Shown here: in pieces, positions 2,287 through 64,000 of the stretch | Layout: each line of letters opens with the position of its first letter | Numbering within the stretch: the stretch's first letter is position 1 | Origin: an uncultured virus (IMG/VR IMGVR_UViG_3300045131_000274) | Lineage: Duplodnaviria > Heunggongvirae > Uroviricota > Caudoviricetes | Length of the DNA: 64,000 bases | Virus record (IMG/VR): IMGVR_UViG_3300045131_000274 | Strand: one strand, 5' to 3' | Translations under genes and position numbers: made by a program | Notes under the pieces: model-generated | The model's database searches: none | What the model saw: only the letters and a program-made list of their open reading frames with translations | Told to the model about the DNA's origin: nothing

Positions 2287-4638
2287 TTAGCGTAGTAGTT
2301 TTAGCAGATCGTCCACCGTCATCTGCTCCGCCAGCAGGTCATCAAGGTGCCCGCCGGTAGCCATTTTAGTCTTATCCTTTGATTTCTTGGTATCTTTTTT
2401 TACGGGTTCTTCTGCCAAAAGTTCCTGCAAAGTTGCCAACAAATTAAAGTCACTCATGCCACCTGCGTAAACAGGTTCATTTGTTTCAGTAGCCCCGTAA
2501 TATCCTGACGGTGTATATACGGGAGTTGTAGTTGGTATCACAACCGGCGGCTTGACCACGGGTGGCTTTACGACGGGCGGCTTCACCACCGGCGGGTTTA
2601 CCACGGGCGTTGTAACAATAGGAACGCATTGTTTTAAGTCTTCGTCATATACAAAACCCGGTTGGCATTTCTTATCGGTAACGACAAGTTCTTCAATATC
2701 ATCATTCCCAGTGCCGCCCGTGACTGTGTCTTCCGTAGTTTGAATGGGTACACATTGCTTTAGGTCTTCGTCATACACATAGCCGGGATTGCATTTTTTA
2801 TCTGTAACGACAAGTTCTTCAACAGTGTCATTCCCTGTACCGCCTGTGACTGAGTCATTGCCTGTGCCGCCTGTAACCGAGTCGCCCCCACCAGTGATGG
2901 TGTCATTGCCAGCGCCGCCCGTTACGGTTACGGTTTCAAGGCCGTCACCACCTGTAGGTATGATTGGGCCTTCGTCCAGACCTGTGGTGTCATTGCCAGT
3001 ACCGCCTGTAATTGAGTCATTGCCCGTACCGCCCGTTACAGTTACGGTTTCAAGGCCATCGTTCCCTGTACCGCCTGTAGGTATGATTGGGCCTTCGTCC
3101 AGACCTGTGGTGTCCGTAGGTCTACCACCAGTTACAACTACTTCACCCTTGTCATCTATTTTGGTCGGTACAAAATCATTGTCAGTGGGTAAATAGTCAA
3201 GCGGCTTACCACCTTTTACAACAACGGTGTCATCCGTAGCGTTAACCATATCCAAGATGTCTTGGTTACTCAGGCCGCTATCTTTAGCAGTGTCAGTGCC
3301 AAGGGAATCAATATAGTCCAGAATTGAATTTAAATCCGTAGTGTCTGCGCCAGTTGTGCCGGACGTGTCGGTAGGGGTTGTAGTTTCTGTTGTAGTTTCG
3401 GTAACATTACCGCCCATGTCGTCGCCAGTACGCCCGCTAGTGGTCAGGCTGTTAAGCAACCTCATGTCTTTTCTAAAGTCAGCCAAACCTTGCACACCAC
3501 CATCTTGGTACGCTTGCAATTCACCGGGTTGGTTTCTTAGTTTTAGTTCTGCTAAGTCTTCGTCAGACAAAGTGGTAATTGCGGGCTCGGTACTAGATGC
3601 AACTCCGCTAGAGCCATAAGTTTTAGCTAATCCAGTAACAGCATCAAAGATTTGTTTATCGTTACCGCTACCCAAAGCTTGAACAGTGTTTAAACCTTTA
3701 AGCACATCATTTAAAGATATGCCAGTGTCGCCAATTTGAGTACTACCTACAGAAGGAGCAAAAAGATTGGCAGCACCTGCTAAGTTTGGATTCTGTGCCA
3801 AATTAATAGCTTTGTTAACATCACCAAGCGTAATGCCTGTATCACCTAATTTCATTGCGCCAGCACTGCTTACACCGCCTTTTAATGCGCCTGCAAGAAT
3901 ATCTTGATCTGTTAAAGCGGCATTTACACCACCTGCTAAAGCACCACCAGCACCCGCTGCCGCTTGGCCCGTTAAGCCAAACAAACTATTGCCAAGCATT
4001 GCCCCGCCGCCACCCATAGTCATTGCGGCCATAATCATTGGGCCAAAAGTATCCCAAAATGTATCTGCTTTTTGTGATTTTTGTGAACCTTGAAAGACAC
4101 CTTCTGGATCATAAAAATAATCCATGCCATCTTTTGACTGCATAAAACCACTTAAAACTGCATCACCATAAATAGGGGTGGCATCCATGCCTTGGCCCTC
4201 GTATCCAATAATAGGTCGGTCTTCTCTTGCCGAAAAACCTCCGCCTAAATCATTGGTAAGGTAATCAATAACGTCCCCAGCATCACCAGATTGTGTAATA
4301 CGTTGTGTTGTTGCGCCTTTTTCGGCGTACATTTTTTTAAGATCAGCCAATGTTGGAGCGGCTTCAGCAACCGGTTGCTGTACTACTGCAGGTTGTTCGG
4401 TAGTTGAAGAAATTAATTCTTCATTTGTTGTAGGGGTACTAACATCCGGCGCAAATTGTTGCGCGTAATAGTCAGTTACTTGGGTGGGTGCAATCTGATA
4501 CCTGTTGGCAATCATATCTGCCAAGCCAGCATTAGCATCTAATCCACCAGCACCCTTTACCGCTTCAGCAACTTGTTCAGCCGTAGCAGTTGGGTTCTGG
4601 GAAAACCACCAGTCAACTTGTTCTTGTGTTAATGCCAT
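2287..4638 (-). CDS. Probable internal virion/ejection protein, acidic and repeat-rich
   Basis: Likely start MALTQEQ at 4638 (TAATG overlap). Has a Gly/Ala hydrophobic segment, GGTGND repeats, PPVVK repeats and a C-terminal MATGG. Confidence 0.65.
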   Translation of the reverse strand: MALTQEQVDWWFSQNPTATAEQVAEAVKGAGGLDANAGLADMIANRYQIAPTQVTDYYAQQFAPDVSTPTTNEELISSTTEQPAVVQQPVAEAAPTLADLKKMYAEKGATTQRITQSGDAGDVIDYLTNDLGGGFSAREDRPIIGYEGQGMDATPIYGDAVLSGFMQSKDGMDYFYDPEGVFQGSQKSQKADTFWDTFGPMIMAAMTMGGGGAMLGNSLFGLTGQAAAGAGGALAGGVNAALTDQDILAGALKGGVSSAGAMKLGDTGITLGDVNKAINLAQNPNLAGAANLFAPSVGSTQIGDTGISLNDVLKGLNTVQALGSGNDKQIFDAVTGLAKTYGSSGVASSTEPAITTLSDEDLAELKLRNQPGELQAYQDGGVQGLADFRKDMRLLNSLTTSGRTGDDMGGNVTETTTETTTPTDTSGTTGADTTDLNSILDYIDSLGTDTAKDSGLSNQDILDMVNATDDTVVVKGGKPLDYLPTDNDFVPTKIDDKGEVVVTGGRPTDTTGLDEGPIIPTGGTGNDGLETVTVTGGTGNDSITGGTGNDTTGLDEGPIIPTGGDGLETVTVTGGAGNDTITGGGDSVTGGTGNDSVTGGTGNDTVEELVVTDKKCNPGYVYDEDLKQCVPIQTTEDTVTGGTGNDDIEELVVTDKKCQPGFVYDEDLKQCVPIVTTPVVNPPVVKPPVVKPPVVKPPVVIPTTTPVYTPSGYYGATETNEPVYAGGMSDFNLLATLQELLAEEPVKKDTKKSKDKTKMATGGHLDDLLAEQMTVDDLLKLLR
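2530..3120. repeat. Intragenic tandem repeats (PPVVK; LDEGPIIPTGG x2; GGTGND; EELVVTDKKC..CVPI x2)
   Basis: Direct DNA repeats, e.g. cctgtaggtatgattgggccttcgtccagacctgtggtgtc near 2951 and 3074. Confidence 0.9.
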
Positions 4639-4988
4639 TATCCAACCTTCCAATTGGTTCCGTCAGAGTAGACGGGTGTAGCTACAGCACCACCACCAGC
4701 GACCGTTGCCCCAAAAGTAGGAGATGACGCATCCGTTACAAAAGACTTGGCACCTGCGCCAGATGTGGCCGCGCTTGGTAATGTGGCTACAGTGTAATTA
4801 GTTAATGGAAGCTGAATGCTTGATGTTTGTAGTTGATTTAAAATGGAATCAACCCTATTAAAATATAAACGAAGCACGTTGTTTACCTGCTCTTGGTAGC
4901 GGGAGTCATACACCGCAGGAGCAAGTGGCAAATTTGGCGACGCCGTTTGATTCAAGGCGTATTCTGAAGTAACGCTTAGTGTACTCAT
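4638..4988 (-). CDS. Small tail-associated structural protein
   Basis: 116 aa, translationally coupled to the nozzle gene. Ends in PVYSDGTNWKVG. Confidence 0.65.
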   Translation of the reverse strand: MSTLSVTSEYALNQTASPNLPLAPAVYDSRYQEQVNNVLRLYFNRVDSILNQLQTSSIQLPLTNYTVATLPSAATSGAGAKSFVTDASSPTFGATVAGGGAVATPVYSDGTNWKVG

Positions 4989-7399
4989 GAGTTACCCCTT
5001 CGGCCATCTTGTTTGATGTCAATACGTGGGCTACCTAACTGCCATGCACAACCAAGTTGGTTTGATTCAATTTGCAGAATCATCTGACGACCACGCACCC
5101 TGACATAGACCTGACCCGTAAACTGCTCAATCACTGCGGTAGATGTACGAACAACTGTGGCATCAGAGTTTCCACCTAAAGATATGGGATTGTTATACCC
5201 AGAGCCGGAGTTCTGCATGGGGATTAGCGTCATCGTAACTTGCGGCGAATCTATATTAGAACCACGGAATGTAATGTCTGGAAGCATGCGGTAAACAAAC
5301 CCAAAGTGGTCGCCGTCATCAATGTCAAACTCAGCAGAACTTATGATGGCGTTAATGGCTACAGGCGTTCCGGTTTCGTTATCATCAACGCCTTGCTCAT
5401 GGTTAACTAAGTTTTTAGTGTACGTAGCCGCCAAAGGATTAGCCCGCAAGCCAGAATCTAACCACGCTGTACGGCCCAAATCGCCGTAAGCCCACACGCC
5501 TTCACCATTATTTTCAAAGTAATTAAACGTGACGTATTTGTCAATGACAGTGCTGTTGGCAGAGCAGTAGAACCACCACACTTCGTTAAAGCCTTCATTG
5601 GTGCCAGAAAATACTTGTGCCGCTTGCCCAAAATTAATGTCTTGAAAAATGTGTTGACGCAAATCACAACGCAAAGTTTGTATACGTCCATCATATTTAT
5701 AAAACTTATCCACACCCATCCAATAAATAATACCGGATGCAATAATGGGTGAGTTAAGAGAAATAATTGAAATATTGTCGCCCAATAACTGGGTAGACCA
5801 TACGGATGGCGGGCCTTGATATTGCAACGAATACACGGACGCATCAGTAAACACAACAATTTCCTGACGGGTTTGCAATGCTGAAACGAATCGTGAGCCG
5901 TGAGACAATTTAGCGCTTCCAGCTTGATTGGTTGCGGAGGGCGTCCAATTTGTGGGGCTCTCTTGGTCAGACCAACGTATTAGCATAGGGTCTTGAATGG
6001 TGCTGCCATAGTCATTACAACCGAACGCAAACACAAAACGGCTAGCATCAGATACAAAAATAGAGTTTTGTATCGTAGGGACATCAGAAGCCCCAGATAG
6101 TTGCGTCAAAGGTATCCCGCGCAGTGATAACGTTTGAACACCAGACTGTGTGCCTGATGTGTTAATGACGGTAGAAAGAGTGTAAGTTAAGCCTGTCGGT
6201 GTACCAGCAGTTGTTACGACACCAGAGCCGCCCGATGTAGTGGACAACGTAAATGTTGTAGAGCCATTGGTTGCAATGATGTAGTACGTTGTGGGGTTGA
6301 CGTAACCTGTGATTGTGCCCGTACCGCCAAGCGTGCCGCTAATTGTAATTGACTGCCCAATAGACAGGGCAGGGGACATAGCTGTGCAAGAGAACTGCCC
6401 AGCAATACCCGTAATTGCTACACCACTAAGAGTAGTGGTAGCGCTGGACGCCACCGCAGATGTGCGCAAAGTAATTGTAGTCGTAGTCGGTACTGATGCT
6501 ACGTAATATGTGATGTTGGGGTATAAAGGCGTTGGTAAAGCACCCGTAGTATCCAGCTGGATTGCATCGCTAATTGACAACCCGTGCGGGGTTTGAAACG
6601 TTAACACCGCAGGTGCCGCAATAGTGATAGTAAAAATTTGTCCTGTTAACTGAGAACTTGCTCTCCAATAATAAATACCACCAGCCAAAGGTGCAAAAAT
6701 TAAGTCTTCGCCAAAATTGCTTTGTGTCCACAGACGCAAACTAGAAGCGTCAGGCAAACCTGTTCCCCAAAGTCCCAGCCCCCATCCACCAGCGCCCCAA
6801 CCGTTAAGCGGCACTTCAATTTCAGGCCCAATTGGGATTTGATAAGAAGCTATGACAGACGCGCCTCCGCCGGGGGAACCCGCCGTATCAGTTGCGTTAG
6901 CTGCTACTGCAACATTAATTGTGTAAGAGCTGGTATTAATAACTGTTACTTGGTATTCAGCGTTTAATACTGCCGCCGTAATATTACCTCCCAAGCCAAC
7001 TGCCCCATAAAACGTTACAAAATCGCCCGTGGCGGCTCCATGATCTGCATCAGTGACTGTAATAGTTTGTGAGCTTGTAGTGGCTACAAATGGATTGTTA
7101 CCAATTACAGAAGAAGCGCGTATGGGTGTAATGTCGTAATAAGCCCCGCCATTTTCAATGTAAAATTTTAAATTAGTACCAACGCCAATTAAATTTAAAA
7201 ACGATAGCGTTACCCAATTCCAAAGTGAGCGGCATATTCCTTGAAATACGTTTACGGAAATACGTGCCCACCCGCCAATTTTTTCAGGAGTGCCTTGGCG
7301 AAAACGCATTTTATCGGAAATGTACCAACCATTCTCATTGGTATACCGAGTGTTTTCTTTATTAACACCGGGTTTTAGGGTTAGTTTTTTAAGCGGCAT
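4985..7399 (-). CDS. Tail nozzle / stabilization protein (P22 gp10-like beta-propeller) with inserted Thr-rich domains
   Basis: 804 aa with IRWSDQE, YWMG.DKFY.YDG and EVWWFY motifs. Lies just upstream of the ejection genes. Confidence 0.75.
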   Translation of the reverse strand: MPLKKLTLKPGVNKENTRYTNENGWYISDKMRFRQGTPEKIGGWARISVNVFQGICRSLWNWVTLSFLNLIGVGTNLKFYIENGGAYYDITPIRASSVIGNNPFVATTSSQTITVTDADHGAATGDFVTFYGAVGLGGNITAAVLNAEYQVTVINTSSYTINVAVAANATDTAGSPGGGASVIASYQIPIGPEIEVPLNGWGAGGWGLGLWGTGLPDASSLRLWTQSNFGEDLIFAPLAGGIYYWRASSQLTGQIFTITIAAPAVLTFQTPHGLSISDAIQLDTTGALPTPLYPNITYYVASVPTTTTITLRTSAVASSATTTLSGVAITGIAGQFSCTAMSPALSIGQSITISGTLGGTGTITGYVNPTTYYIIATNGSTTFTLSTTSGGSGVVTTAGTPTGLTYTLSTVINTSGTQSGVQTLSLRGIPLTQLSGASDVPTIQNSIFVSDASRFVFAFGCNDYGSTIQDPMLIRWSDQESPTNWTPSATNQAGSAKLSHGSRFVSALQTRQEIVVFTDASVYSLQYQGPPSVWSTQLLGDNISIISLNSPIIASGIIYWMGVDKFYKYDGRIQTLRCDLRQHIFQDINFGQAAQVFSGTNEGFNEVWWFYCSANSTVIDKYVTFNYFENNGEGVWAYGDLGRTAWLDSGLRANPLAATYTKNLVNHEQGVDDNETGTPVAINAIISSAEFDIDDGDHFGFVYRMLPDITFRGSNIDSPQVTMTLIPMQNSGSGYNNPISLGGNSDATVVRTSTAVIEQFTGQVYVRVRGRQMILQIESNQLGCAWQLGSPRIDIKQDGRRGNS

Positions 7400-10362: not shown

Positions 10363-12744
10363 TTATGGATGAGTTGCTTTGTACAGATCAAACTCTGCTT
10401 TAAGCTCTTGGATGGCTTTAACCAAAATTGGAATTAATGTGCCGGCAGAGGCTTCCAATCTATCAGGGTTAATATCAGACACCAAGTGTGGCACTGTAAC
10501 CCCTGCGGCATTTTGCGCTTGTTGAAGCTCTTGGGCAATAAAGCCAAATTCTGTAATACCAACCTTTTGGCCGTCACGCATGTTCCAATCAAAGGACACA
10601 GGGCGAAGTGCTTGCACAAAGTTTAAACCCGCTGGAATGTCCACAATGTTGGTTTTATCACGCGCATCGGACAACGCCGTAATAGATGTGACTTGGCATC
10701 GCAATGTAGTGATTGAGCCATCGCCCAAGGTAATTGTATTGTTGGCCGTAGGAGATGCTCCCATGGCGTTGTAACCAATAAATGTATTGCCAGTGCCTGT
10801 TGTGTTGGCTTGCGTTCCATTGCCATAACCTGATAAATAGCCAATAGCAGTATTGTTTACGCCTGTAGTATTTGAATACAGGGCAGTATCGCCTACTGCA
10901 GCATTGCCTGCGCCAATTGTATTTAAGTAAAGCGAGAGATAACCAACGGCTGTGTTTGACGAACCAGTGGTGGTAGTACGCAATGCGTTATACCCCAATG
11001 CCGCATTTCGGGAAGCGTTTGCTGTGTATAACGCGCCTCCTCCCACCGCCGTGTTTTGTGTACCGGTAGTGTTTACCGCTAAAGCGTCCGCGCCTATACC
11101 AACATTGTCCGTACCAACTGTATTTTGGCCTAATGAACCATACCCAACGGCAGTATTGGTAGTTCCTGTTGAGTTGGAAGTTAATGCTTGAAGCCCAACG
11201 GCAGTATTATTTGTACCGGTTGTATTGGTGTACAGTGCTTGCCAACCGCTTGCGGTATTTCCAGTGCCCACTGTGTTGTTGTACAAAGCGTTATAACCAA
11301 CTGCGCTGTTTCTAATACCAGTAGTATTTTTGTTTAGCGAGTTATATCCAACAGCAGTATTGTCGTTGCCTGTAGTGTTTAAATTCAAAGCAGCCGTTCC
11401 AACTGCAACGTTGTTATTGCCCGTTGTGTTGGTGGTTAAAGCTAAAGATCCAATAGCAATATTTTGTCCACCAGCCGTGTTAAAACGAAGTGCTAAATAA
11501 CCAATTCCAACATTATTAGTGCCATCTACATTACTAATAAGAGCGCTGCTCCCAACGGCCACATTGTTTATACCAGTAGTGTTGTTTAGTAACGCTGCAT
11601 AACCAACAGCCACATTATCGACACCCACGGTATTGTAGTAAAGTGCATTATTTCCAATAGCCGTGTTATTACTGCCGGTGGTGTTCCGATCTAAAGCAGC
11701 TGATCCTACAGCAACATTGTAGTTGCCAGATGTATTTAAACGTAATGCGTTAGCGCCTATGGCAATATTGTCACTTCCGCGTATGTTGGTAGTTAATGCA
11801 AAATATCCAACTGCCACGTTTGCACCCCCAATAGTATTTGAATTGAGGGCTAGATAACCAACTGCCGTATTATTAGTGCCTGTCGTATTAGACGCTAATG
11901 CGCTGTTACCAACTGCTGTGCTTGCGTTTGGGGAAGCACCGCTCCCTGCGCCTTTACCGACTGTCAAACCTTGCAAGCTAGAACTACCCGTCACTGTAAG
12001 AGTGGAGGAAGCTGTTATGGTTGTAAACGCTCCCGTTGCAGGAGTGGTTGCACCCACAGTGCCATTGATGTTAAAGCTGGCTGCAGTTCCGGTAATGTTT
12101 GTTCCCACCATTGAAGCTGGGGTATTTAGGATCGCACCATTACCTAACGTAGCTACACCGGTAACACCTAATGTTCCGGACAAAGTAGCACTCGCGCCAG
12201 CCAATGTGCCCGTGATAGTGGGGGAGGCTGAAAGAACCAGATTACCACTACCTGTGGAAGTGGTTGTGCCCGTGCCACCGCTAGTAACTGGCAAAGCAGC
12301 GCCTAGCGTTAAAGAACTGAAATGTGAAGCCGCATCGACAACGTTTGTGCCGTTGTTGAAAACCAACGTAGCTTTACCAGCTGGAACAGTGATGCCTGTG
12401 CCGGTCGTATTCTTAACGGTTTTTGCGCCTGTCCCCGTGTTGTTAATCAGGTAAAACTTTTCAATCTGGCAACCTGAACCCAAGATTAAATTGCGTACAG
12501 AACCAATTCCGGTAGAGCTTTCAGTAATATTTAAACGCAAGTTTCTAGCAGCTTGCGTAGTAATGACGTCAGTAAGTGTGATTGTGACATCCGCATCTGT
12601 AGAAAAGTCTACCGTGGCGGAGCCTGTAATGGCCTCCCCCAGAACCGCGTCACCTAAGTTAGTGTTGGTGAGCGTTCCCCAAGTGCCTGAATTTGCACCA
12701 GTTTCAAGCAATTCTACTTTTAGCGCAGACCATGATGATGACAT
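10363..12744 (-). CDS. Tail fibre/spike with beta-helix repeats and C-terminal intramolecular chaperone (peptidase S74)
   Basis: About 20 copies of a ~17-aa NTTG..N.AVG..AL repeat. Ends with SDARDKTNI...LRPVSFDW...GFIAQE...LVKAIQEL. Confidence 0.88.
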   Translation of the reverse strand: MSSSWSALKVELLETGANSGTWGTLTNTNLGDAVLGEAITGSATVDFSTDADVTITLTDVITTQAARNLRLNITESSTGIGSVRNLILGSGCQIEKFYLINNTGTGAKTVKNTTGTGITVPAGKATLVFNNGTNVVDAASHFSSLTLGAALPVTSGGTGTTTSTGSGNLVLSASPTITGTLAGASATLSGTLGVTGVATLGNGAILNTPASMVGTNITGTAASFNINGTVGATTPATGAFTTITASSTLTVTGSSSLQGLTVGKGAGSGASPNASTAVGNSALASNTTGTNNTAVGYLALNSNTIGGANVAVGYFALTTNIRGSDNIAIGANALRLNTSGNYNVAVGSAALDRNTTGSNNTAIGNNALYYNTVGVDNVAVGYAALLNNTTGINNVAVGSSALISNVDGTNNVGIGYLALRFNTAGGQNIAIGSLALTTNTTGNNNVAVGTAALNLNTTGNDNTAVGYNSLNKNTTGIRNSAVGYNALYNNTVGTGNTASGWQALYTNTTGTNNTAVGLQALTSNSTGTTNTAVGYGSLGQNTVGTDNVGIGADALAVNTTGTQNTAVGGGALYTANASRNAALGYNALRTTTTGSSNTAVGYLSLYLNTIGAGNAAVGDTALYSNTTGVNNTAIGYLSGYGNGTQANTTGTGNTFIGYNAMGASPTANNTITLGDGSITTLRCQVTSITALSDARDKTNIVDIPAGLNFVQALRPVSFDWNMRDGQKVGITEFGFIAQELQQAQNAAGVTVPHLVSDINPDRLEASAGTLIPILVKAIQELKAEFDLYKATHP

Positions 12745-12781
12745 TTTATACTCCCAATTTGTTTAAACACTTATGCCGTAC

Positions 12782-13450
12782 TTACGGGATAACCGGGTAC
12801 CAGCCCGGTGTTTGCTGATCGTCTACATCACCCCAACCGGGGTTCTGCGTATTGTCTACATTTTGCCAGTTTATGGTCTGGCTGTCATCTACATTTGTCC
12901 AAGCGGCTGACTGTGTATTGTTAATGTCACCCCAGTTTGGAATCTGGCTGTCGTCCACCGGCTCCCACAAATATGCGGCAAAGAACGCATCGGATGCGGT
13001 CAGACTGGTCAGCAGGGTAACGTTATAGATACTGCCCGCAGGGTTGTAGTCGTCTGTTGCTGTAGAGCTTTCGCTAACTACCGCACCAAATATGGACGGG
13101 GCAACCAGAACAAAATCTGTGGCCGTCGCGCTTTCCTGTAGGGCTGCTACAAATGTAGCAAATGCCGATACAGAATCCGTTGCCGTGGCTGTTTCCGCTA
13201 TGGCAGCTACAAATGTAGCAAATGCCGAGGTAGTATCCGTTGCCGTTGCGCTTTCGCTGACGTTGGAGGCAAAGCCTGCCCCCGCGTTTACACTGTCCGT
13301 GGCTGTAGCGCTTTCGGCAATGACCGAGATTTGGGTTGCTTGGGTGCTGACTGTATCAGTTGCTACCGCGCTTTCCGCAAGGACAGCCGCATACGCACTC
13401 CACAAGAGAGACGATATGGGAGCCTGCGAGAAAGCATTAAACCCAAACAT
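12782..13450 (-). CDS. Tail-associated structural protein with ESATATD repeats
   Basis: ~19-aa Ala/Thr repeats and C-terminal W..VDD.Q repeats. Confidence 0.65.
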   Translation of the reverse strand: MFGFNAFSQAPISSLLWSAYAAVLAESAVATDTVSTQATQISVIAESATATDSVNAGAGFASNVSESATATDTTSAFATFVAAIAETATATDSVSAFATFVAALQESATATDFVLVAPSIFGAVVSESSTATDDYNPAGSIYNVTLLTSLTASDAFFAAYLWEPVDDSQIPNWGDINNTQSAAWTNVDDSQTINWQNVDNTQNPGWGDVDDQQTPGWYPVIP

Positions 13451-13466
13451 TTAGCAGTAACCCCAA

Positions 13467-14117
13467 TTACATTGCATACGAATTATTTTTGCTTAAATTT
13501 TCGATGGCCGTTAAAACTTGTAAATTCCACGGCACATGAAGACCTGATGCAATTTTAGCCTTTAAAGGAATGATATGGTCGACATGATGCTTGACCCCTG
13601 TTTGCATTTCTAATGCTGTTGCCACTTCGTAATACTCAGCAATTTGAGCTTTATGGATAGCGGTCAACCAGTCTGGGGTTGCATTTAGTTCGGAAGCCCG
13701 TCTTCGTGCACGTTTGGCTTTTGCAATACCAGCGTTATTTTTAAACCATTCTTTACCTTGCAAACGCCTTTTTTCAGCGTATTCAGGATTTGCATAACGC
13801 TCTCGGCTTTTTTCTTTAAGAATCTCTAATTGTTTTAGACGATATTCTTCATCAGAATGCCATCTTTGTTTTTTCTGTTCTTTATGTTTGGCGTAATTTT
13901 CTGGGTTTTTAAACTTGTATTCTTTTAGCAATTCATTGCGCTTAACAACTGCTTCAGGATATTTTGCCCAATAACGCAACATATAGAGCCGATGGCACTC
14001 AACACAACGACCGGTATTGGTATTGCGTTCTACAGTATGCCCATTCTTGCAAGGCACATTGGTAAAGTATCTGTCTTTACCTTCTGCCTTTGCTTTTGCT
14101 CTAATGTCGCATTTCAT
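13467..14117 (-). CDS. HNH endonuclease (free-standing, homing type)
   Basis: HHVDHIIPL...GLHVPWNLQVLTAIENLSK, plus an N-terminal PCKNGH...CVEC Zn motif. Confidence 0.9.
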   Translation of the reverse strand: MKCDIRAKAKAEGKDRYFTNVPCKNGHTVERNTNTGRCVECHRLYMLRYWAKYPEAVVKRNELLKEYKFKNPENYAKHKEQKKQRWHSDEEYRLKQLEILKEKSRERYANPEYAEKRRLQGKEWFKNNAGIAKAKRARRRASELNATPDWLTAIHKAQIAEYYEVATALEMQTGVKHHVDHIIPLKAKIASGLHVPWNLQVLTAIENLSKNNSYAM

Positions 14118-14118
14118 A

Positions 14119-14388: not shown

Positions 14389-14392
14389 GATG

Positions 14393-14695: not shown

Positions 14696-14697
14696 GA

Positions 14698-14862: not shown

Positions 14863-14873
14863 AGGTTCTCCTG

Positions 14874-17453: not shown

Positions 17454-17454
17454 A

Positions 17455-55366: not shown

Positions 55367-58300
55367 TCATTTAAGAGATTTGCGTAGTGACTCAGCTTGC
55401 TCGGCGTACATGCCAATCAACTCTTTCAAGCGGTCAATTTCTTCGCGTTTGTCTGAGCCGGACAGTCCTTCGTTGGCGTTGACTTCGCGGATCTGTTTAC
55501 GTATCGCAGCCATCTTCTTGGCTGTCTGATCGTAAATTTTAGCCAAAGCAATCTTGTCGCCCTTCTCTTCCATGATCTGCATAACTTTATCCGTTTGATT
55601 GGATTCAGCATAGTGGCGCATGTCGGCAAAGGCTTGGCTAATCTGACGGTTGTTCTCATAGAACGCAGTGGCATAGCGCGACTGGTTAGATGGCAATGAC
55701 TTAACCAACCCCAGACTAGCGCGGTCCAGCCACTTGGCATCAGGATAATCACCATCATTAAACGGCATAACGGCGTAATGACTTGTAACCGCAGCCGTGC
55801 TACCCAGCCAACCAAAGTAGGCCTTGATTGCATAGTCCACCTGGACGGGCGACAGCTCGCCCTTCTCACCCAGGATTGCGGTCATACCGCCCAAAGCTAT
55901 GGCCAGCGGGCTAGTTGTATCAGCTGCGCGCTCCTGCTTAGACAGGCGCTCCATGCCGGCGCTCTCAATAGGTGAGCCGGTAAAGCTATCTTTGTTGGCG
56001 TACAAATCCAGCACCGGTTTAAATATCTGCGGCACAGGATTCAAAGCAAACGTATCACCCAGCATGCGCTTGATACTGTCGCCAAACTGTTTGCCTTCTG
56101 CTTCCTGGTCAACGATCTGCTCCAGGACGCGCTCGGCCATGGTTCCAAATGCGCCAATTTCAAACGGCTTGGGTACACGGAATGCGAAGTCCATACCGGG
56201 CAACTTAAACCACCAGAAGTTATCGCGGTCCCATTCGTCTCTCTTCTTGTAGTCTTCGTCGTCTTTGAACATCATGTACAAAGCCATGGACGCACCGGCC
56301 ACAGCTAGTGTGGTGTAGCCAAACGCTTCAGCTTTCTGCTTGTCCGTCTGCTCAATGGGTTTGCCGGTCACGGTGTTGTACAAAACGCGCGCCGTAGGAG
56401 TTACACCATCACGGCCCAGCTTATACAAGCCTTGGACGCGGGCATTCATAAACGGCACCACTTGGGTCACCAATCTAAACGCCGGCCACGAACCCTGCAT
56501 TGAGAAGTCCAACAGATCCCTGGCAGCAAACGCCGCCTGGAGGTGCGTTAACTTACGCTCGCGCATCTGGTTGTACAAAGCCATACGGTTAGCAGCTTCA
56601 GATTTGTTGCCCCATTCCTGGTACTTATCCCAAGCGACGTTCAGGCCGGCTTTAATCTTTTCTTGGGTGTCCAAGATATGCTCACCCTTGACGCCCTGAG
56701 CCAGCAAACGCTTGATCAACCTGGACTGGTCGCCTTCATAAGCCGAGCCAAAGTTAAAGATTGCACCACCGGCCAGAGCAGAGATGTGCGCAGGATTGTT
56801 TTTATCCGTGGCGGCCCAGCCCTCAATCACGTTGGCAAATGGATTGCGCTTTAGGTCGCTAACAGCCAGCGCCTGGATTGAATCGCGAATCAAGTTGTTT
56901 ACTTTGAAGCCGGGGGCAATCGTCACGCCGTATTGCAGTAGGTTCTTGAAGTCACGAGCAACATCCAGGAACTTTGACTTGGGGCCCAAGTAACCAATAG
57001 ATGTAATGGAATCTAGCAGCATCGGATCCAGCACTTCAAAGTAAGCGGGCTGGCCGTTGATCATTGTCTTGACCATGCCTTTGCCGGCTTCCATATATTC
57101 TGGACGCAACGAACCATCCCCCACTACTTCCCCTGATTTAGTGGATACCACCTGACCGTCTTCCCAAGCCAGGCCAACTTTTAGGTTTGGAATAGCAGCG
57201 CCAGCTTCCATTGCGGCATTGAGCGTTGCGTTGGACGCCTGGTTCTTCATCGACGCTGACAGGATATGACTCCAGTTGCGCAAAGTGTTTTCCATCAGGT
57301 CGCCAAATGGTTTATCGCTCTGGCCCTTCAGCTCAGCACTAAACTTCTGGCTAGTTAAACCGGAAGCCGTGGCCGCGTCTTGCAGGTCACCACTTTCCAT
57401 TTGTTTATAAAAAGGAATGTAGAACAGATCCTGGGAGAAACGCTCATAAGCCGCCTTGTCCATTAGGCCGGCGTTGTACGCAACATCCAGCACAGATTTA
57501 TTCAAGGCGTTCATGTCCTGCTGAACCTCTTGATACACCTCTAAGCGGGGTCTACCATTGATTTCACCTTGCACCAATTGATCACGGTCAGCAAGCAGCG
57601 GGGCTAGATTGGGAGAACGCTTTTCAATAGGCAGGCGCGACTCACGACCCAGGGCAATCCACATCATGTAGCGGTCTGTCTCAGCACCGACGGGCTTCAT
57701 AGCTTCAAACAAACCTTTGGTCTTGCCTTTGATATCCAGGGCGCCACCGTTGTTGTAAACATGGCCGTGCATCAGCAAACCTTCTAGCGCACCGTCCACA
57801 GTCTTTGACAGGCGGGCCATCATGTAAGCCTCTTCGCTGTAGTCTTTGATGGTGCGGTACTGGTCAGCAATACCTTGGGCGGCACGGCGCCAGAAGCCAT
57901 CCCTCATGCCGGCAATGCGGTCAATGATGGTCTTGGTCTGGGGGTTAAAGACTTCGCCTAGCTTTTTAACATAATCCGCATCCATGTCGGACAGGGCTTC
58001 GCGGTTAATAGGCTCACGCTTTTGTAGCTTCTGCTGGGCTGCAGCTTTGACGGATGCTGCAACCTTGGCGGCCGTGTCACCCGCTTCTTTCAGCATGAAC
58101 ATTTCCATCTGCGCATCTTGCGAGATGATTGGCGGAATCGTCATGTCCTGGGCTTTTTGAGCGGCTTCATTAGCAGCTTCCAAATACTTCTTGAACGTTT
58201 CGTTAGGCAGGTAGCCAGCATTCTTTACCTTGGCATAGAACGCACGAAGCGAATCAGCCAAGCGTTTAAAGAACTGCTCAACCACACCCACAGGCTTGTC

Positions 58301-61300
58301 GGACGTTAAAGCCCAACGTGAAACCTGGTCGGCATACCATTCTTTAAAGTTAAACCAATACGGATCCATGTGGGCAGCCATAGCGCCTTCACTAATGTCC
58401 GTGGTTTTTGCCGTTGTCTTGGCGCGCAAAGAATTTACCAGCTCGCGGGCGGTCTTGCCTTTGGTGGACGCCAACCACTTGTCGTACTCAGCTTTGATGG
58501 CCGCCTGGGTTTCAGCTGGTGCTTTGTTAAACACCTCAAACTGGTGCATGTGGCCCATCTCGTGCGCCATAATTTCTAGCATTGACGTAATGCTAGAAGA
58601 CGGCGTCATGGCAATGTAGTAATCTCCATTCGGCATCTGGCGCATCGAGCCTGCCAAACGGTAGTCCAGGGCGGCAGATCCAACGGCGCGCCACTGGCCC
58701 GTCATGTTGTGTGCATCTACGCGGGCATCAGGTATGGTGGTGATGTAGATGTTGTTATTAATACCCAACATCTCTTTCCAACCCTTGACCACGCCAGCAA
58801 TTTTAGGCGGCATGTTTTTGGAAAACGCCAACCCATTTTTGTCAAATTTGATAAATGGATTCTCAGCTTCTGCCTGCGCGTCGGCAGTTTCCAGGTCCAA
58901 CCTGACCTGACGCAACTCTTTAGTTTCAGCATCTGTTAAACCGTTGGTGCCTTGTTGCGTATCAATATCAAAGTTGTTGCGGGTAAAATCTTTGATGGCC
59001 ACATAAACCGGATTGCCTGTTCGCTTATTCCAGCCGCGCACTAAAGCCAACGATCCGCGCTGCCAGACCACTTGGCCGTTGACACCTTCGGCGCCAGCAT
59101 CTACAAACGCAATCTGCTCTGGCGTAGCATCCCGCAGCATGTACAAGAACTCACCGCGGTCGGAGTACTGGACATTTTTAGCCAGCACAAAACGGCCTAT
59201 CTGGATGACGTCGTCAGCAGCTATCACGGGCTGCTTGGTTGCCCGGTCATAGAAGTAGGAGTGACGCAGCGGATCAAAGCTGACCTGTGACCATGCTTTA
59301 TCTTTCAATAAGCGCTGGACCATTGCATAGGCTTCTTCAGGCGTAATGCTGACCCAGTTACCTTCCATCGTTTGCTGGGGTGACTTGTTGCCCTGGTCTA
59401 CCTTGTTACCACTCTTGCTAATTGTCGGCTCAGCCTGGGTGGCCACCTTCATGGCAGCCTTTTGGTTACGAATAGAGAACCGTACGTTCTGTATGCGGGC
59501 AGCGCTTGAGTAACTGATGGGTGAATTAGGATTGTTTTCTGGATGGATAGCAACAACGCTACCTGTCAGACCCTGAGATTTAGCGCGGCCCAGGGCATTA
59601 ATATCCATGCGCAAACCAACCGGCGTACCGTCAGCAATCGGCGCATTCATTTTGGATATCTGGTTAGTCTGCAAAACCAACTTCATGTCAGATTGAGACA
59701 TGGGCCGCTCAGGGTTTGGAATCGTGCCAATAGGCATGTAGAAATCTACATACTCATCAAACTGTTCTTTGGTAATGCGGCCAGCTTGTAGTTCGCGGGC
59801 AGCCAACACAACCTGTTGCTTACGGCCTTCTTTTGTCTTAAAGCCTTCGGGAGGCTTAAGCTCGGGAGGTGCCCTGGGCTTTGCTGGTTCTGCAAAGATA
59901 TCTGTCTGACCAAGAGACGCAGCAACATCAGCATCCCGGTCGCTACCTGTCAGGACAAAGTCAGCAGCAGCTTCGTCGGCTTTAGCTTTCTCTTCCGCCG
60001 CACGATCAACAGCTTTCCTGTCTTTTTCCGCTTTGATTGCAGCATCTTGCTTAGCCACAATCTCTTCAACGGAAGGTTGGGTTAGCTCGAGCCCAGCTCC
60101 CTCATCGCTCGGTTGGCCAGTATCCTGGACGCTATCTTCACGGCCTGCGGTGATGGTGTCTTCGAGGGCTGACTTGAAGGCTTTGTAGTAGGCTTGGACG
60201 GACTGGTTTTCTGTTTCATAAAAGACCTCTTCTTGAATGGATGCCGTATCAATACCCAGCTCATCGGCTTGAGCCAACAGCGCGCGCACTTCAGCTTGAA
60301 CATCAGGCTCGGCAGCGTCGTAGCCCGTACCGTCAAAGTCAGACATCTCATATCCCAACTCTTCATCAATAGGGGAATACAGGGATGCTTCTTCTTCTGC
60401 TTTTAGGTAATCAGCAAAGCGCTTTTCTTCGTCGCGCTTCGTCATTTCTTCCACGTCTTGTGGGCGGTACTGGGGCTTCTTGACGCTGTCCGTAATCATC
60501 TTGCGGGCATCGTTCTGGGTTGCGTTCTCACCCAGGTAGCCAGCTTCTTGAAGCTTGGTGTAAGCCTCTTCCATGCTGATGCCTTTGCCTTCGCCGGCAA
60601 ATAGGAATCGGTTGCCAACACGAATGTTTTTGTCCATGCCCAGATCAGACATTTCAGATTTAACCAAGCCGCCTTCGCTGGTGATGTACTCATGCGCAGA
60701 CATGGGCACACCTGTAGCCGACGTCTTGGCCAGGCCTAAACGTTTAGCTTTGGCTTCATCAGCAGCAATCTGCTTGGGCGTCTTGGGTGCCAAGATGAAA
60801 CCCTTCTTATCCTTTGTGGGCAAGACGCGCATTTCAGGGTAGTTTTTACGCGCCATATCCGCTGACTTGCGGGATTTAAATGGTACGCCGCCTTCAGTAA
60901 CGGGCTGCGGTGCTACCGCCAACTTACCCTTCTCGTCCAGCTCACGCTTGGCAGCTGCGTCGTGGCCAATGTTGTCAGGGTGATTAAAGTAATCCACCTT
61001 GGGCTCTTTAGGCGTAACCACCTTAGCGGGCGGGATCAGGCCCAGCTCATCTACTTCAGCTTGCGTAAGCGACGGATACTCTTCCCGCACTGCAGGCGTC
61101 GTGGTAACGGCCGGCGTCTCTGGCGGCTTTTCCAGCGTTAAAGATGTGGGTGTGACGGCTGGTGTAGCCGGCTTAGGCTGGGGCGTCAGGTTACCCTTCT
61201 TGTCCAGCTTTAGCTCATATCCCAATTCACCCAACGCTTCACGCTGACGGGCGTTATTCATGATCGGGTCACGGCTGTATGCGGTAGCCATAATCCCATT

Positions 61301-62917
61301 CACGCGTGACTGAATGTCTGTGGCTTCAGCAGCCTTCTTGTCTTGCTCAGCTTTAGCCGCGGCCGCAGCTTGGTCTGCCTGGCGCTGACGGATAGACGCC
61401 ATTAAATCTTCGTTAGCTGTAGTCCCAGCCAGGGACTGACGCACCTCATCAGCCCGCCGGCCTTCAGCAATCTTTGCTTCTTGAGCCGCGCGCTCAGCCG
61501 CAATATCTCTACCCGCTGGCGGAATAGGAACAACAACATCGTTGCCTTGTTTATCCCTAGACATTTGGTAACCCAGGGTAGCCAGCTGTTCATCACGGCG
61601 GATGGCGTTAAGCGCTGGATCACCGCTGTACGTAGCGGCAGCAGTAGCTTTGGCTTCGGCATCACGCTTAGCTTTAGCTTCTTTCTCAGCCTGGACGCGC
61701 AACTCTTCATCGGCAGCAGCCTTCTCATCAGCACGAACCCGAGCGGCCTGCATTAAATCTTCATTACGTGGGGCAGCTTGTTGCTCAAACAAACCAGCAG
61801 CGCGTTCTTGTGTAGCACGTTGTGCGTCCAGCTCATCTTGTCTAGCTTTAGCGGCGGCAGCTTCACGCTCACGGGCCGCACCCATGACATCAGCACCCAT
61901 ACCCTGACGGCCAGCAGCTTGCTCCCGGAACATCTCGGCGGGTGTTTTTCCGGTTAGGGAAACAGGCGGCTTGTATGCTTCTGGCTCAGGCTCAGGCGTA
62001 ACGGTAGGTTTACGCAGCGCACCAGCAGCCGCACCACCCACACCACCAACAGCAGCAGCGCCAAAGAATGCCTCTTTGTATTCGCGCATAGCATCATCAC
62101 CCTTGAGGGGTAAGCCTGCTTGCCAACGTTCACCCATCTGCTCAAGCACTTCAGTAGGCGCTTCGGCCACCACACCAACGGTAGCGCCAGTAGCAGCACG
62201 GACGCCGGCCCGTTTGGCTAACTCAGCCGCGACCTGCTGACCTAGAATCTTTTCTGGTACGTTACCAAACCCCAGCATTAACCTGTCGGCAAAGTAACCA
62301 ATAGGCGCCGTAACCGCGGCAGTAGCGGCAGCTTTACCAGGCGCAAGGGTTTCACCAGTAGCGCCTTCTTCAGCCTGACGGCGCATGAAGTTACCAAACT
62401 GTTGTAGGCCATACGTACCAATACCCGCCACCGGGCCAACAATTGGGGCAAACGGGCCAGACACAGCAGCAGCGCCAATACCAGCGGCCAACGGCACAGC
62501 CATAGATGGAGCGCTTTGTAATACCTGCTCAGTCAGGTAGGATGGAACCTTCTTGGCCGCAGACAGTAGGCCCTGTTCTTGATATGCTTTTTCCAGATCA
62601 GCAAACGACACGCCCTGGGGTTTGTTTGCTTCCGCCTGCGCCTGGGCGCGAATGTCTTCTGCTTGTTTGCTGGCAGACTCCCGCATTCCCAGGGCAGCTT
62701 TAATGCCCAACCCAATGCCGGCAGCGCTTTCAGGCACGGCTTCAAAGCCACGGACAGCAGCAGCTTTAGCACTACCTAGAAAGGTGGGCTCCGCTGGTAG
62801 GGGCTCAGCCTGCCCCTGCATACTCTTGATGTATGTGGCTATTTGCGTGGCCGCCTGTACGTCACCCGCCGCATGCGCGTTTTGTAGCGCACGGTAAAGA
62901 GTCTGCATGTCTGCCAT
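55367..62917 (-). CDS. Giant internal virion / large polyvalent protein with HExxH zincin-like domain and LPD38-like C-terminus
   Basis: 2516 aa. Hydrophobic Ala/Gly N-terminal region, AHEMGH...EWYAD, and PFMNARVQG...W.RDNFW...RVPKPFEIG. Confidence 0.75.
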   Translation of the reverse strand: MADMQTLYRALQNAHAAGDVQAATQIATYIKSMQGQAEPLPAEPTFLGSAKAAAVRGFEAVPESAAGIGLGIKAALGMRESASKQAEDIRAQAQAEANKPQGVSFADLEKAYQEQGLLSAAKKVPSYLTEQVLQSAPSMAVPLAAGIGAAAVSGPFAPIVGPVAGIGTYGLQQFGNFMRRQAEEGATGETLAPGKAAATAAVTAPIGYFADRLMLGFGNVPEKILGQQVAAELAKRAGVRAATGATVGVVAEAPTEVLEQMGERWQAGLPLKGDDAMREYKEAFFGAAAVGGVGGAAAGALRKPTVTPEPEPEAYKPPVSLTGKTPAEMFREQAAGRQGMGADVMGAAREREAAAAKARQDELDAQRATQERAAGLFEQQAAPRNEDLMQAARVRADEKAAADEELRVQAEKEAKAKRDAEAKATAAATYSGDPALNAIRRDEQLATLGYQMSRDKQGNDVVVPIPPAGRDIAAERAAQEAKIAEGRRADEVRQSLAGTTANEDLMASIRQRQADQAAAAAKAEQDKKAAEATDIQSRVNGIMATAYSRDPIMNNARQREALGELGYELKLDKKGNLTPQPKPATPAVTPTSLTLEKPPETPAVTTTPAVREEYPSLTQAEVDELGLIPPAKVVTPKEPKVDYFNHPDNIGHDAAAKRELDEKGKLAVAPQPVTEGGVPFKSRKSADMARKNYPEMRVLPTKDKKGFILAPKTPKQIAADEAKAKRLGLAKTSATGVPMSAHEYITSEGGLVKSEMSDLGMDKNIRVGNRFLFAGEGKGISMEEAYTKLQEAGYLGENATQNDARKMITDSVKKPQYRPQDVEEMTKRDEEKRFADYLKAEEEASLYSPIDEELGYEMSDFDGTGYDAAEPDVQAEVRALLAQADELGIDTASIQEEVFYETENQSVQAYYKAFKSALEDTITAGREDSVQDTGQPSDEGAGLELTQPSVEEIVAKQDAAIKAEKDRKAVDRAAEEKAKADEAAADFVLTGSDRDADVAASLGQTDIFAEPAKPRAPPELKPPEGFKTKEGRKQQVVLAARELQAGRITKEQFDEYVDFYMPIGTIPNPERPMSQSDMKLVLQTNQISKMNAPIADGTPVGLRMDINALGRAKSQGLTGSVVAIHPENNPNSPISYSSAARIQNVRFSIRNQKAAMKVATQAEPTISKSGNKVDQGNKSPQQTMEGNWVSITPEEAYAMVQRLLKDKAWSQVSFDPLRHSYFYDRATKQPVIAADDVIQIGRFVLAKNVQYSDRGEFLYMLRDATPEQIAFVDAGAEGVNGQVVWQRGSLALVRGWNKRTGNPVYVAIKDFTRNNFDIDTQQGTNGLTDAETKELRQVRLDLETADAQAEAENPFIKFDKNGLAFSKNMPPKIAGVVKGWKEMLGINNNIYITTIPDARVDAHNMTGQWRAVGSAALDYRLAGSMRQMPNGDYYIAMTPSSSITSMLEIMAHEMGHMHQFEVFNKAPAETQAAIKAEYDKWLASTKGKTARELVNSLRAKTTAKTTDISEGAMAAHMDPYWFNFKEWYADQVSRWALTSDKPVGVVEQFFKRLADSLRAFYAKVKNAGYLPNETFKKYLEAANEAAQKAQDMTIPPIISQDAQMEMFMLKEAGDTAAKVAASVKAAAQQKLQKREPINREALSDMDADYVKKLGEVFNPQTKTIIDRIAGMRDGFWRRAAQGIADQYRTIKDYSEEAYMMARLSKTVDGALEGLLMHGHVYNNGGALDIKGKTKGLFEAMKPVGAETDRYMMWIALGRESRLPIEKRSPNLAPLLADRDQLVQGEINGRPRLEVYQEVQQDMNALNKSVLDVAYNAGLMDKAAYERFSQDLFYIPFYKQMESGDLQDAATASGLTSQKFSAELKGQSDKPFGDLMENTLRNWSHILSASMKNQASNATLNAAMEAGAAIPNLKVGLAWEDGQVVSTKSGEVVGDGSLRPEYMEAGKGMVKTMINGQPAYFEVLDPMLLDSITSIGYLGPKSKFLDVARDFKNLLQYGVTIAPGFKVNNLIRDSIQALAVSDLKRNPFANVIEGWAATDKNNPAHISALAGGAIFNFGSAYEGDQSRLIKRLLAQGVKGEHILDTQEKIKAGLNVAWDKYQEWGNKSEAANRMALYNQMRERKLTHLQAAFAARDLLDFSMQGSWPAFRLVTQVVPFMNARVQGLYKLGRDGVTPTARVLYNTVTGKPIEQTDKQKAEAFGYTTLAVAGASMALYMMFKDDEDYKKRDEWDRDNFWWFKLPGMDFAFRVPKPFEIGAFGTMAERVLEQIVDQEAEGKQFGDSIKRMLGDTFALNPVPQIFKPVLDLYANKDSFTGSPIESAGMERLSKQERAADTTSPLAIALGGMTAILGEKGELSPVQVDYAIKAYFGWLGSTAAVTSHYAVMPFNDGDYPDAKWLDRASLGLVKSLPSNQSRYATAFYENNRQISQAFADMRHYAESNQTDKVMQIMEEKGDKIALAKIYDQTAKKMAAIRKQIREVNANEGLSGSDKREEIDRLKELIGMYAEQAESLRKSLK

Positions 62918-62926
62918 AGCCCAACC

Positions 62927-64000
62927 TTATTTTGCGTATTGATTCACTAAGTTAGCAATATTGTCTGGCAAATCGGGCATGATCCCAGCGCCACGCTCAA
63001 TATCTTGCATGATAGCTTTGGCAGCAGCTTTTTTAGCAGGATCTTTAGCAAAATAGTATTGTTGCGCAGCGGTTTTATACGCTTCATTCTTTTCAACCAA
63101 GGCTTGACGCTGCAAAGTTACTTTATCTTGAGCCGTAGCGCCCCGAGTGCCGGTCTTGATGCGTTCAATGTCTTGCAACATTTTTTCAGCAGCCGCAGGA
63201 TCTTTAGCCTTGAGCGCGCCGTATTGAGACAACAGACGCTCAGTTTCACCTGGTCTATTAGCAACCGCTGCTTGAATACGTGCAACTTCCAACGAATTCA
63301 AATTGCGCTCTTTGGCAATCTGCATCTGCACTGCATTGCTAGATGCTTGGTTAGCCAAATTAATATTACCTTGCATCTGTGAGCCCAAGACGCTGGCGCC
63401 CGTAGTAGCAGATGTATCGCGCAATTTGCTTAATGTATCGCCGATTTTATTAGCTCCGGCAATGCCTTCTGAGCGGCGGGCAACATCAACTGCGTTACGC
63501 AAATCCATTTCTTGCTGCTGCATCTTCAAATCTTCAGCGCGCTTCTGGGCTTGCATGGCTGTGTAAGCCGGGCCTAAGCCAGACAAACCTTTAGACTGAC
63601 CAGCCTGGCCAAACACGCGAATTAAATCATCTAAGCCGGATGGTTTGGATTGGTTATACAAATCACGCGCCGCCTGGATTCGAGCTTCTTGCTCTTCACC
63701 GCCACGACCTTTAATACCCATAGCGGTTAAGCGCGCTTGGTTTTCTGTCAACAAAGATGCCTGATCCGGAGCTTTTAACGCCGTAGCGACAGCAGCGGCT
63801 GCGGCAGGATCGCTTAATCCAGGAATGTTTGGTGTGCCAGGTACGCCCACATTTAAAGGCTCTTGCACTGGACCCATCTGTTGGGTAGCAGGCTTTGCGG
63901 CTTGCTGCGTTACAGGTGGACGAGGAGGGGCAGGTGGGCGGGGAGGGGCTTCAGCCAACACGTTGGTTGCTTTGCTTTGGCCGTAAGGGATGATCATGTC
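62927..64000 (-). CDS. 3' part of a probable internal virion protein (starts beyond the window edge)
   Basis: Open to the window end, Ala/Gln-rich, directly upstream of the giant protein. Confidence 0.7.
   Translation of the reverse strand, partial: DMIIPYGQSKATNVLAEAPPRPPAPPRPPVTQQAAKPATQQMGPVQEPLNVGVPGTPNIPGLSDPAAAAAVATALKAPDQASLLTENQARLTAMGIKGRGGEEQEARIQAARDLYNQSKPSGLDDLIRVFGQAGQSKGLSGLGPAYTAMQAQKRAEDLKMQQQEMDLRNAVDVARRSEGIAGANKIGDTLSKLRDTSATTGASVLGSQMQGNINLANQASSNAVQMQIAKERNLNSLEVARIQAAVANRPGETERLLSQYGALKAKDPAAAEKMLQDIERIKTGTRGATAQDKVTLQRQALVEKNEAYKTAAQQYYFAKDPAKKAAAKAIMQDIERGAGIMPDLPDNIANLVNQYAK

Follow-up and report, generated by a model that had tools for sequence, protein, structure and literature searches.

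TonB-box-like motifs arrayed in a probable ejection protein of an uncultured lake podophage

The stretch of DNA analysed here (the window, 64,000 nucleotides) covers almost all of the 64,656-base virus record IMGVR_UViG_3300045131_000274; the ends of the record join, and the gene interrupted at position 1 resumes at the contig end. The source is an uncultured, HTVC023P-like lake podophage, with a capsid protein 64-76% identical to those of Pag-Yong1/MinM2, DSL-LC04 and the pelagiphages HTVC023P/027P and 39% identical to that of Caulobacter phage RW. Judged by its nozzle and adaptor, the phage is of the short-tailed type. Our subject is P1, a minus-strand open reading frame (ORF) in which an earlier note had seen six motifs resembling TonB boxes and had proposed that they recruit host TonB repeatedly, like a ratchet. 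All six motifs were found in this ORF and, judged by sequence comparison, the array is a set of real, selected, slot-specific TonB-box look-alikes. P1 and its elements are:

2287..4638, minus strand: P1, 783 aa, ORF P0001, hypervariable; the first large gene past the nozzle gene and a 116-aa gene; probably ejected from the virion
3604..4068, minus strand: weakly hydrophobic stretch rich in Gly and Ala, aa 191-345; may insert into a membrane
3205..3234, minus strand: TonB-box-like motif 1, aa 469-478; DDTVVVKG at aa 469 (nt 3234-3211); 8.7 bits, the weakest
3121..3150, minus strand: TonB-box-like motif 2, aa 497-506; GEVVVTG at aa 498; 12.9 bits
3025..3054, minus strand: TonB-box-like motif 3, aa 529-538; LETVTVTG at aa 529; 11.3 bits
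2911..2940, minus strand: TonB-box-like motif 4, aa 567-576; LETVTVTG at aa 567; 15.6 bits
2794..2823, minus strand: TonB-box-like motif 5, aa 606-615; VEELVVTD at aa 606; 16.8 bits
2668..2697, minus strand: TonB-box-like motif 6, aa 648-657; IEELVVTD at aa 648; 16.8 bits; in a 126-nt duplication with motif 5
2701..3075, minus strand: seven GGxGxD RTX-like units, at aa 522, 536, 545, 574, 590, 599 and 641 (span aa 522-646)
2746..2793, minus strand: Cys hairpin 1, aa 616-631; CBM_14/cEGF-like fragment
2620..2667, minus strand: Cys hairpin 2, aa 658-673
2546..2609, minus strand: short PPVVK array, three exact PPVVK; tandem 4.3 x 15 nt
2290..2364, minus strand: C-terminal segment of P1, begins MATGG; common to close relatives

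To score the motifs we collected 89 TonB-dependent transporter loci, of which the 77 proteobacterial ones were used for a TonB-box profile and the other 12 were excluded. The profile was built by unseeded motif discovery on the 40 residues preceding the match to the Plug domain (PF07715), and the phage motif was not in the training set. The resulting profile, L-[EP]-E-[VIT]-V-V-T-[AG]-[TS]-R, had a leave-one-out median of 18.9 bits and a 10th percentile of 8.3 bits over the 77 boxes, and 21 of 30 held-out transporter boxes were found at 10 bits or more (median 14.2). With 8.7-16.8 bits the six P1 motifs ranked at the 13th to 42nd percentile of the 77 leave-one-out scores, all within the range of natural boxes, and they were the only peaks of at least 4 bits in P1. 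When P1 was shuffled 1000 times, the mean was 0.18 peaks of at least 8 bits and the maximum 3; as no shuffle reached six, the motifs are more than chance.

Background levels were low elsewhere. Among the window ORFs (37,525 residues in all), four others reached 8 bits, namely the antisense frame over the array (15 and 18 bits) and three with single matches of at most 9.7 bits. The plug and barrel parts of the transporters (52,050 residues) gave 6 matches at 8 bits and none at 12, and the 3 matches at 12 bits in host open frames (98,511 residues) included two transporter boxes of the training set. Group-specific profiles, by which motifs 5 and 6 scored 17.8 and 18.0 with the gammaproteobacterial version versus 8.2 and 5.9, were left unused, since 23 of the 26 gammaproteobacterial boxes came from one genome.

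The array is not an assembly artefact, because the P1 gene is unchanged in locus L001 and its sequence words are present in lake metagenomes (at least half of them in 21 of the 24 lake runs among those listed, 8 of the 24 being flagged as possible sources). No RNA dataset carrying the gene was found among the runs listed. Such strands might nevertheless be a neutral by-product of a tandemly duplicating, low-complexity linker rich in Thr, Val, Gly and Asp. The composition of aa 469-680 would suit this explanation (55% G+T+D+P), as would a dominant flank cluster among the relatives, described below, and the in-frame loss of one copy in the lake. Contigs from two of four lake runs skip 117 and 139 bases of the P1 gene, with 9 and 4 other letters between, so that both variants show a net loss of 108 and 135 bases, in frame, with motif 4 gone (single contigs at a depth of 3-4, hence weak); from these, motif copy number seems variable in nature. 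Composition-matched shuffles speak against a neutral origin, giving 0.09 matches where P1 has 6. The duplicated 41-codon unit of box and hairpin carries 15 synonymous versus 7 non-synonymous codon differences, an excess that points to selection on the protein, and in the relatives the motif is kept while its flanks turn over, Pro/Thr-rich and Gln-rich linkers included. We regard a neutral origin as very unlikely.

The survey of homologues suggested in the earlier note showed the motifs to be conserved. A search with the whole of P1 gave 280 homologues, 120 among the matches listed and 119 of these non-identical; a box of at least 10 bits was present in 96 of the 119, two or more in 52. Since this query contained the motifs, the search was repeated with aa 97-353 only, and of 45 representatives, a number of which are fragments, 11 then had a box of at least 10 bits and 5 had two or more. 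One relative found in this way carries the near-consensus IPEMVITAPR four times, at 22 bits each. For the family as a whole we pooled 163 proteins (reduced from 242); a box of at least 8 bits was present in 103, with one to six copies in 34, 23, 14, 9, 15 and 8 proteins, respectively, and a median spacing of 40.5 aa (n=178). The strong boxes lay C-terminal to the most hydrophobic Gly/Ala window in 193 of 194 cases, the window being sought in the first three quarters of the protein. A TolB-box pattern was matched by none of the 163 proteins.

The match extends beyond the core. With sites picked on positions 1-7 only, position 10 was R/K in 107 of the 149 distinct 10-mers from phages and in 51 of 77 transporter boxes, at a background of 7%. 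These sites are not independent of one another. Counted by flank cluster, downstream R/K was dominant in 12 of 28, while the control slots had 5 of 41 (Fisher p 0.005). Some P1-slot proteins of the related loci carry very long Pro-rich arrays (L013:3630-8009, L015:3569-6514, L017:5652-8759), with PPVA dozens of times or Pro/Thr with interspersed TEQVTVTA.

The gene order nozzle - small gene - P1 - P2 - P3 - large protein is kept across related loci. In the window the neighbours of P1 in this module are:

4985..7399, minus strand: tail nozzle protein, 804 aa; family profile matches PDB 'nozzle gp16' 8zkk, E 1.2e-10; phrog_3287
4638..4988, minus strand: 116-aa gene, between nozzle and P1
295..2277, minus strand: P2, 660 aa; assigned to a DNA-ejection family through its relatives
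62927..64000, minus strand: C-terminal part of P3; the gene wraps round the contig end, with its start at 1-285
55367..62917, minus strand: large polyvalent protein (LPD38), 2516 aa; final gene of the module

Loci for a comparison between these slots were found via P2 or the nozzle, and near-duplicates were removed, which reduced the P1 slot from 79 to 65 proteins, our own gene included. The P1 slot held 33 boxes of at least 12 bits, in 22 of the 65 proteins, where 0.6 were expected from shuffles; outside it there were 5 in approximately 415,000 residues. By slot, there were 2 boxes in 119 nozzle proteins, 0 in 85 small genes, 0 in 96 P2, 0 in 68 P3, 1 in 38 large proteins, 2 in 594 upstream ORFs and 0 in 108 others. 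In 30 unplaced post-nozzle ORFs there were 2. Two small genes upstream of the nozzle begin with LDELTVTDHR (L078:9551-9979, 15.9 bits) and LEELTHTDHR (L127:6778-7203, 10.7 bits), probably by chance.

The earlier note took P1 for a probable ejection protein, and its place agrees with this: it lies within the ejection module, with the nozzle upstream and the DNA-ejection family downstream. Judged by this gene order, P1 is probably an internal, ejected virion protein. P2 itself has no match to phrog_4287 'DNA ejection protein'; 8 of the 35 aligned members of its family match it, the best at E 9.1e-17. The whole P3 gene, as seen in locus L001, encodes 583 aa. P1 had no match in PHROG or among annotated phages, and the P1 and P2 alignments gave nothing significant against PDB sequences. 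An ESM Atlas model has a mean pLDDT of 0.42 and a pTM of 0.19. In the Atlas, aa 460-700 gave no usable feature match, for aa 95-410 the best feature match was 0.88, without a family, and no structure match exceeded TM 0.33 by query.

Elsewhere in the window, three large fibre or spike genes stand side by side at 10363-21104 (793, 859 and 994 aa). The first has a peptidase S74 chaperone at its end, and the last two have, by eye, repeats and a C-terminal domain in common. Two genes that by eye look HNH endonuclease-like are inserted between the tail fibre genes (13467-14117 and 17455-18153).

With respect to the surroundings of the motifs, the earlier note had described GGTGND spacers with RTX-like repeats, a Pro-rich rod of PPVVK repeats and, ahead of the motifs, a hydrophobic Gly/Ala segment. 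All of these have a counterpart in P1, with some corrections. Seven GGxGxD units are present; the spacers are not uniform, no GGTGND lies between motifs 1 and 2, and the Cys hairpins after motifs 5 and 6 had been missed. The RTX Pfam match (PF00353) stays below its cut-off (21.4 versus 23 bits), and NCBIfam RTX matches are far under theirs. The PPVVK array is present, but the Pro-rich part is only about 21 residues long and makes no rod. The Gly/Ala segment is likewise present, but it peaks approximately 250-270 residues upstream of the motifs and is weak, with a 19-residue hydropathy maximum of only 1.12 at aa 197-220.

These repeats raise the question whether the motifs are structural strands of P1 itself, either within an RTX-like roll that folds with Ca2+ or as the third one in the Cys-hairpin module; Ca2+-induced folding or disulfide formation could then serve as a passive ratchet. 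It may be that the GGxGxD units take up Ca2+ and that disulfides form in the Cys pairs once these are outside the cytoplasm. In the RTX nonapeptide consensus, GGxGxDxU, the eighth residue is hydrophobic, and it is so in 6 of the 7 units of P1. Both Cys hairpins read C-x-P-G-x-V-Y-D-E-D-L-K-Q-C, and follow directly upon motifs 5 and 6 (aa 616 and 658); the Pfam CBM_14 match scores 23.4 bits (cut-off 22.1). In the pooled family 47 of 48 hairpin-bearing and 31 of 34 GGxGxD-bearing members also have a box, and GGTGNDTVT and LETVTVTGG share letters and may, judging from their sequence, derive from each other. Long Cys-hairpin arrays occur in some relatives of P1: P0038 (1233 aa; 33 hairpins), L006:4639-8988 (up to 68 Cys) and L009:4881-8750. 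Such arrays are unusual for a protein made in the cytoplasm.

Against the structural explanation stands the occurrence of boxes where these repeats are missing. Among the matches listed, GGxGxD was absent from 82 of the 119 homologues; 67 of these 82 have a box, as have 52 of the 67 without GGxGxD and with at most one Cys. Many hairpins have acidic linkers in place of the motif. In P1 the units are spaced by 14, 9, 29, 16, 9 and 42 residues, so that only two pairs are in the 9-residue register; a motif has eight residues where a roll has three, and would therefore loop out of it. Four open-frame pieces of two bacterial RTX-repeat proteins gave no match at 8 bits. P1 thus resembles an RTX beta-roll in its seven GGxGxD units and differs from it in a broken register and a score below the cut-off; its neighbours are phage virion genes, and no dedicated search was made for type I secretion transporter genes. 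Folding of the motifs into a roll, which the earlier note regarded as fatal to its idea, is not what these data suggest, because boxes occur without RTX-like repeats and the motifs appear to lie outside the register. We consider structural strands an improbable explanation. The TonB-box-like nature of the motifs, in comparison, is upheld: they score like real boxes, recur with and without RTX repeats and are specific to the P1 slot.

Known TonB-dependent systems, cited here from the excerpts consulted, offer several points of comparison. The TonB box of transporters, which precedes the Plug domain, has the same 10-residue pattern as the P1 motifs and scores in the same range. The P1 motifs stand in a similarly acidic and presumably flexible setting, with a net charge of -28 over aa 469-680, and R/K follows downstream in 4 of the 6 P1 sites. 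The two differ in copy number (one versus six), in the internal position of the P1 copies in the C-terminal half (aa 469-657) and in the Asp at position 8 in two P1 sites, and the phage record yielded neither a Plug domain nor a barrel. Group B colicins, pyocin S2 and klebicin C are foreign proteins that present a TonB box of their own in a disordered region and are pulled in (PMC12927319). These bacteriocins have a single box near the N-terminus, whereas P1 has an array behind a hydrophobic segment in a virion protein, with no toxin domain seen. Entry of phages T1 and phi80 needs TonB and the proton motive force; the box shown to be needed is that of the receptor FhuA, and the consulted part of PMC11658791 mentions no phage-encoded one.

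Among podophage ejection proteins, T7 gp14 and SU10 gp20-24 resemble P1 in a gene position after the nozzle, a DNA-ejection-family neighbour and a hydrophobic segment, weakly so in P1 (PMC8954989, PMC9509320), although P1 has no sequence match to solved structures or PHROG. T7 gp14 is the first protein ejected and is located in the outer membrane (PMC8954989). The word TonB did not occur in the consulted text of PMC8954989 and PMC9509320. A cultured parallel is gp66 of Caulobacter phage RW (proposed Riverwalkvirus; L326:22433-24175, minus strand), which lies in the same part of the module and has a Gly/Ala segment followed by a flexible linker. It carries one 13-bit box and three weaker core matches; the seven-position core finds four sites (P 0.002 versus shuffles, in a region chosen after seeing the sites). 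It differs from P1, to which it has no BLAST match, in a linker of the Pro/Thr/Gly kind that lacks RTX and Cys repeats, in having Pro as the eighth residue of the box and in a C-terminus that resembles part of P2. RW was cultured on CB15, and it and three near-identical isolates grow on C. vibrioides (PMC11053796); TonB dependence had no mention in the consulted part of that article.

The explanation we favour, with a confidence that stays a little short of even, is that P1 serves as an accessory TonB-engaging linker at entry. P1, an internal virion protein to judge from its gene order, would be expelled through the nozzle, and its Gly/Ala segment would insert in the outer membrane, as T7 gp14 does, although the hydropathy of the segment is weak. 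The acidic linker behind the segment would then hang in the periplasm, exposing short strands that match TonB boxes, to which the C-terminal domain of host TonB would bind through beta-strand augmentation. The TonB box pairs as a parallel strand with beta-3 of TonB, and for its activity secondary structure matters more than the side chains (PMC11658791). The complex of TonB and box withstands force while the plug unfolds downstream of the box, and the free pentapeptide ETVIV has been used to block TonB action (PMC5413942). Should the load follow the box, as it does in transporters, TonB would pull the C-terminal portion of P1 out of the nozzle, perhaps together with anything attached to it. 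As a lesser alternative, the boxes would tether the phage to the energised site.

In its full form the model states that, in short-tailed phages of this abundant lake group, an ejection protein bears a phage-encoded series of TonB handles at intervals of approximately one TonB stroke, by which the Ton motor winches ejection proteins from the virion into the periplasm, independently of transporter boxes. TonB dislodges 50-60 residues from plugs (PMC12927319); the median spacing of 40.5 aa is near this value, and a spacing of about 40 residues is compatible with successive TonB engagements. This winch accounts for about half of the confidence given to TonB engagement at entry and is, taken by itself, rather unlikely.

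A number of observations weigh against TonB engagement, and most of them concern patchiness. No 12-bit box was present in 43 of the 65 P1-slot proteins, not even an 8-bit one in 60 of the 163 family members, and 34 of the 103 box-bearing relatives have a single copy. On a quick nozzle tree of 66 rows, used for mapping presence and absence, 24 rows had a 10-bit box, with 14 presence changes (19.7 for shuffled labels), at least 11 of which are forced by well-supported branches. Near-identical sister phages differ in box presence (L020 versus L064; L009 versus L022); some of the 'no box' labels on the tree are threshold effects (L002, L053). The nozzle-to-end genes of HTVC023P (9 proteins), DSL-LC04 (7) and an Alcaligenes phage (4) gave no match at 8 bits, and HTVC027P (in the nozzle), Pag-Yong1 and CRP-901 gave one isolated 8-bit match each. 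Of the 294 unique sites, 259 are linked in a single flank cluster, so that much of the box signal comes from one lineage. Asp occupies position 8 in 40% of the 149 distinct motifs from phages versus 3% of transporter boxes, and the tolerance that makes TonB binding plausible could also let any exposed V-x-V strand serve another partner. In 15 of the 163 family proteins, 13 of them without a box, the place of the boxes is taken by a different, conserved module recognisable by GYYDEITG and WEYSLT.

This alternative linker module is approximately 80 aa long (GYYDEITG ... WEYSLTRPGVW; e.g. L030:307-1596, L031:6188-7384, L048:119-1999, L060:6053-7657), and it may be an alternative host-contact module. 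Given a copy number of 0 to 6 in relatives and the replacement of the array by other modules, the boxes would form an accessory, swappable module and not part of the core ejection machinery; single-box and box-less relatives exist, so the array is not required. The obligatory multi-step ratchet of the earlier note is therefore doubtful, with 43 of 65 slot proteins lacking a 12-bit box, sisters that flip and single-copy relatives, and one box suffices for bacteriocins (PMC12927319).

Patchy presence would fit an accessory benefit, as expected if TonB binding acted only as a decoy that, at the infected cell, blocks uptake through TonB, or rival phages and bacteriocins. Peptides of the TonB box inhibit the function of TonB once they are brought into the periplasm (PMC9841981). 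On the other side, inspection of the P1 N-terminus by eye shows no signal peptide, which makes a later export of P1 unlikely. A virion, moreover, delivers few copies. A pure decoy, itself a variant of the explanation favoured above, seems to us the least probable of the explanations weighed here; up to about a third of the confidence given to TonB engagement could fall on a decoy or on simple tethering.

The Asp at position 8, a departure from transporter boxes, bears also on a further explanation, in which the motif is a selected linear binding strand for a partner other than TonB. This partner would be either some other host protein of the periplasm or one of the phage's own proteins (nozzle, portal, P2/P3), augmented during packaging or ejection. 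Conservation and slot specificity show selection and do not name the partner, and beta augmentation is a common binding mode. The match to transporter boxes, however, includes the leading hydrophobic residue and the downstream R/K, and the phage record gave no TonB C-terminal domain. For a phage partner, a core structural contact should not vanish between sister phages. A better candidate for a packaging or cleavage signal is [MYF][AKNS]xGG, because it is the motif common to P1, P2 and P3: per 1000 aa it occurs 2.8 times in P2, 2.0 in P3, 0.6 in the P1 slot and 0.06 in the nozzle, and it is possibly such a signal of internal proteins. By eye, many copies of it were also seen in a 227-aa gene at 25355-26038. 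We hold a non-TonB partner to be unlikely, yet worth serious consideration.

The betaproteobacterial host named in the earlier note is an assumption, as genome-bin and host-matching searches gave no host. Nineteen nozzle loci lie in genome bins spread over unrelated phyla, so these loci are probably mis-binned. In the family of one bin, 34 of 301 genomes match the early region of the phage, the best at 70-72% over approximately 180-240 bases; no spacer was identified, and no tRNA was found in the phage. TonB is common in the family of one Burkholderiaceae bin (41 of 41 genomes), a family of unproven host status.

In the open-access literature, searched by titles and the starts of abstracts, we found no description of a phage-encoded TonB box; if binding holds, the array would be TonB-box exploitation in a new variant. 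The idea is testable because the cultured Caulobacter phage RW carries a candidate box in the equivalent gene. The source of energy by which podophage ejection proteins leave the virion and assemble is an open question, and TonB pull on long polypeptides is stated as one in the consulted part of PMC12927319. The known TonB-dependent phages rely on the box of their receptor; a phage-encoded box would add a bacteriocin-like, energised entry route, and natural arrays of one to six boxes would allow testing how far TonB pulls per engagement.

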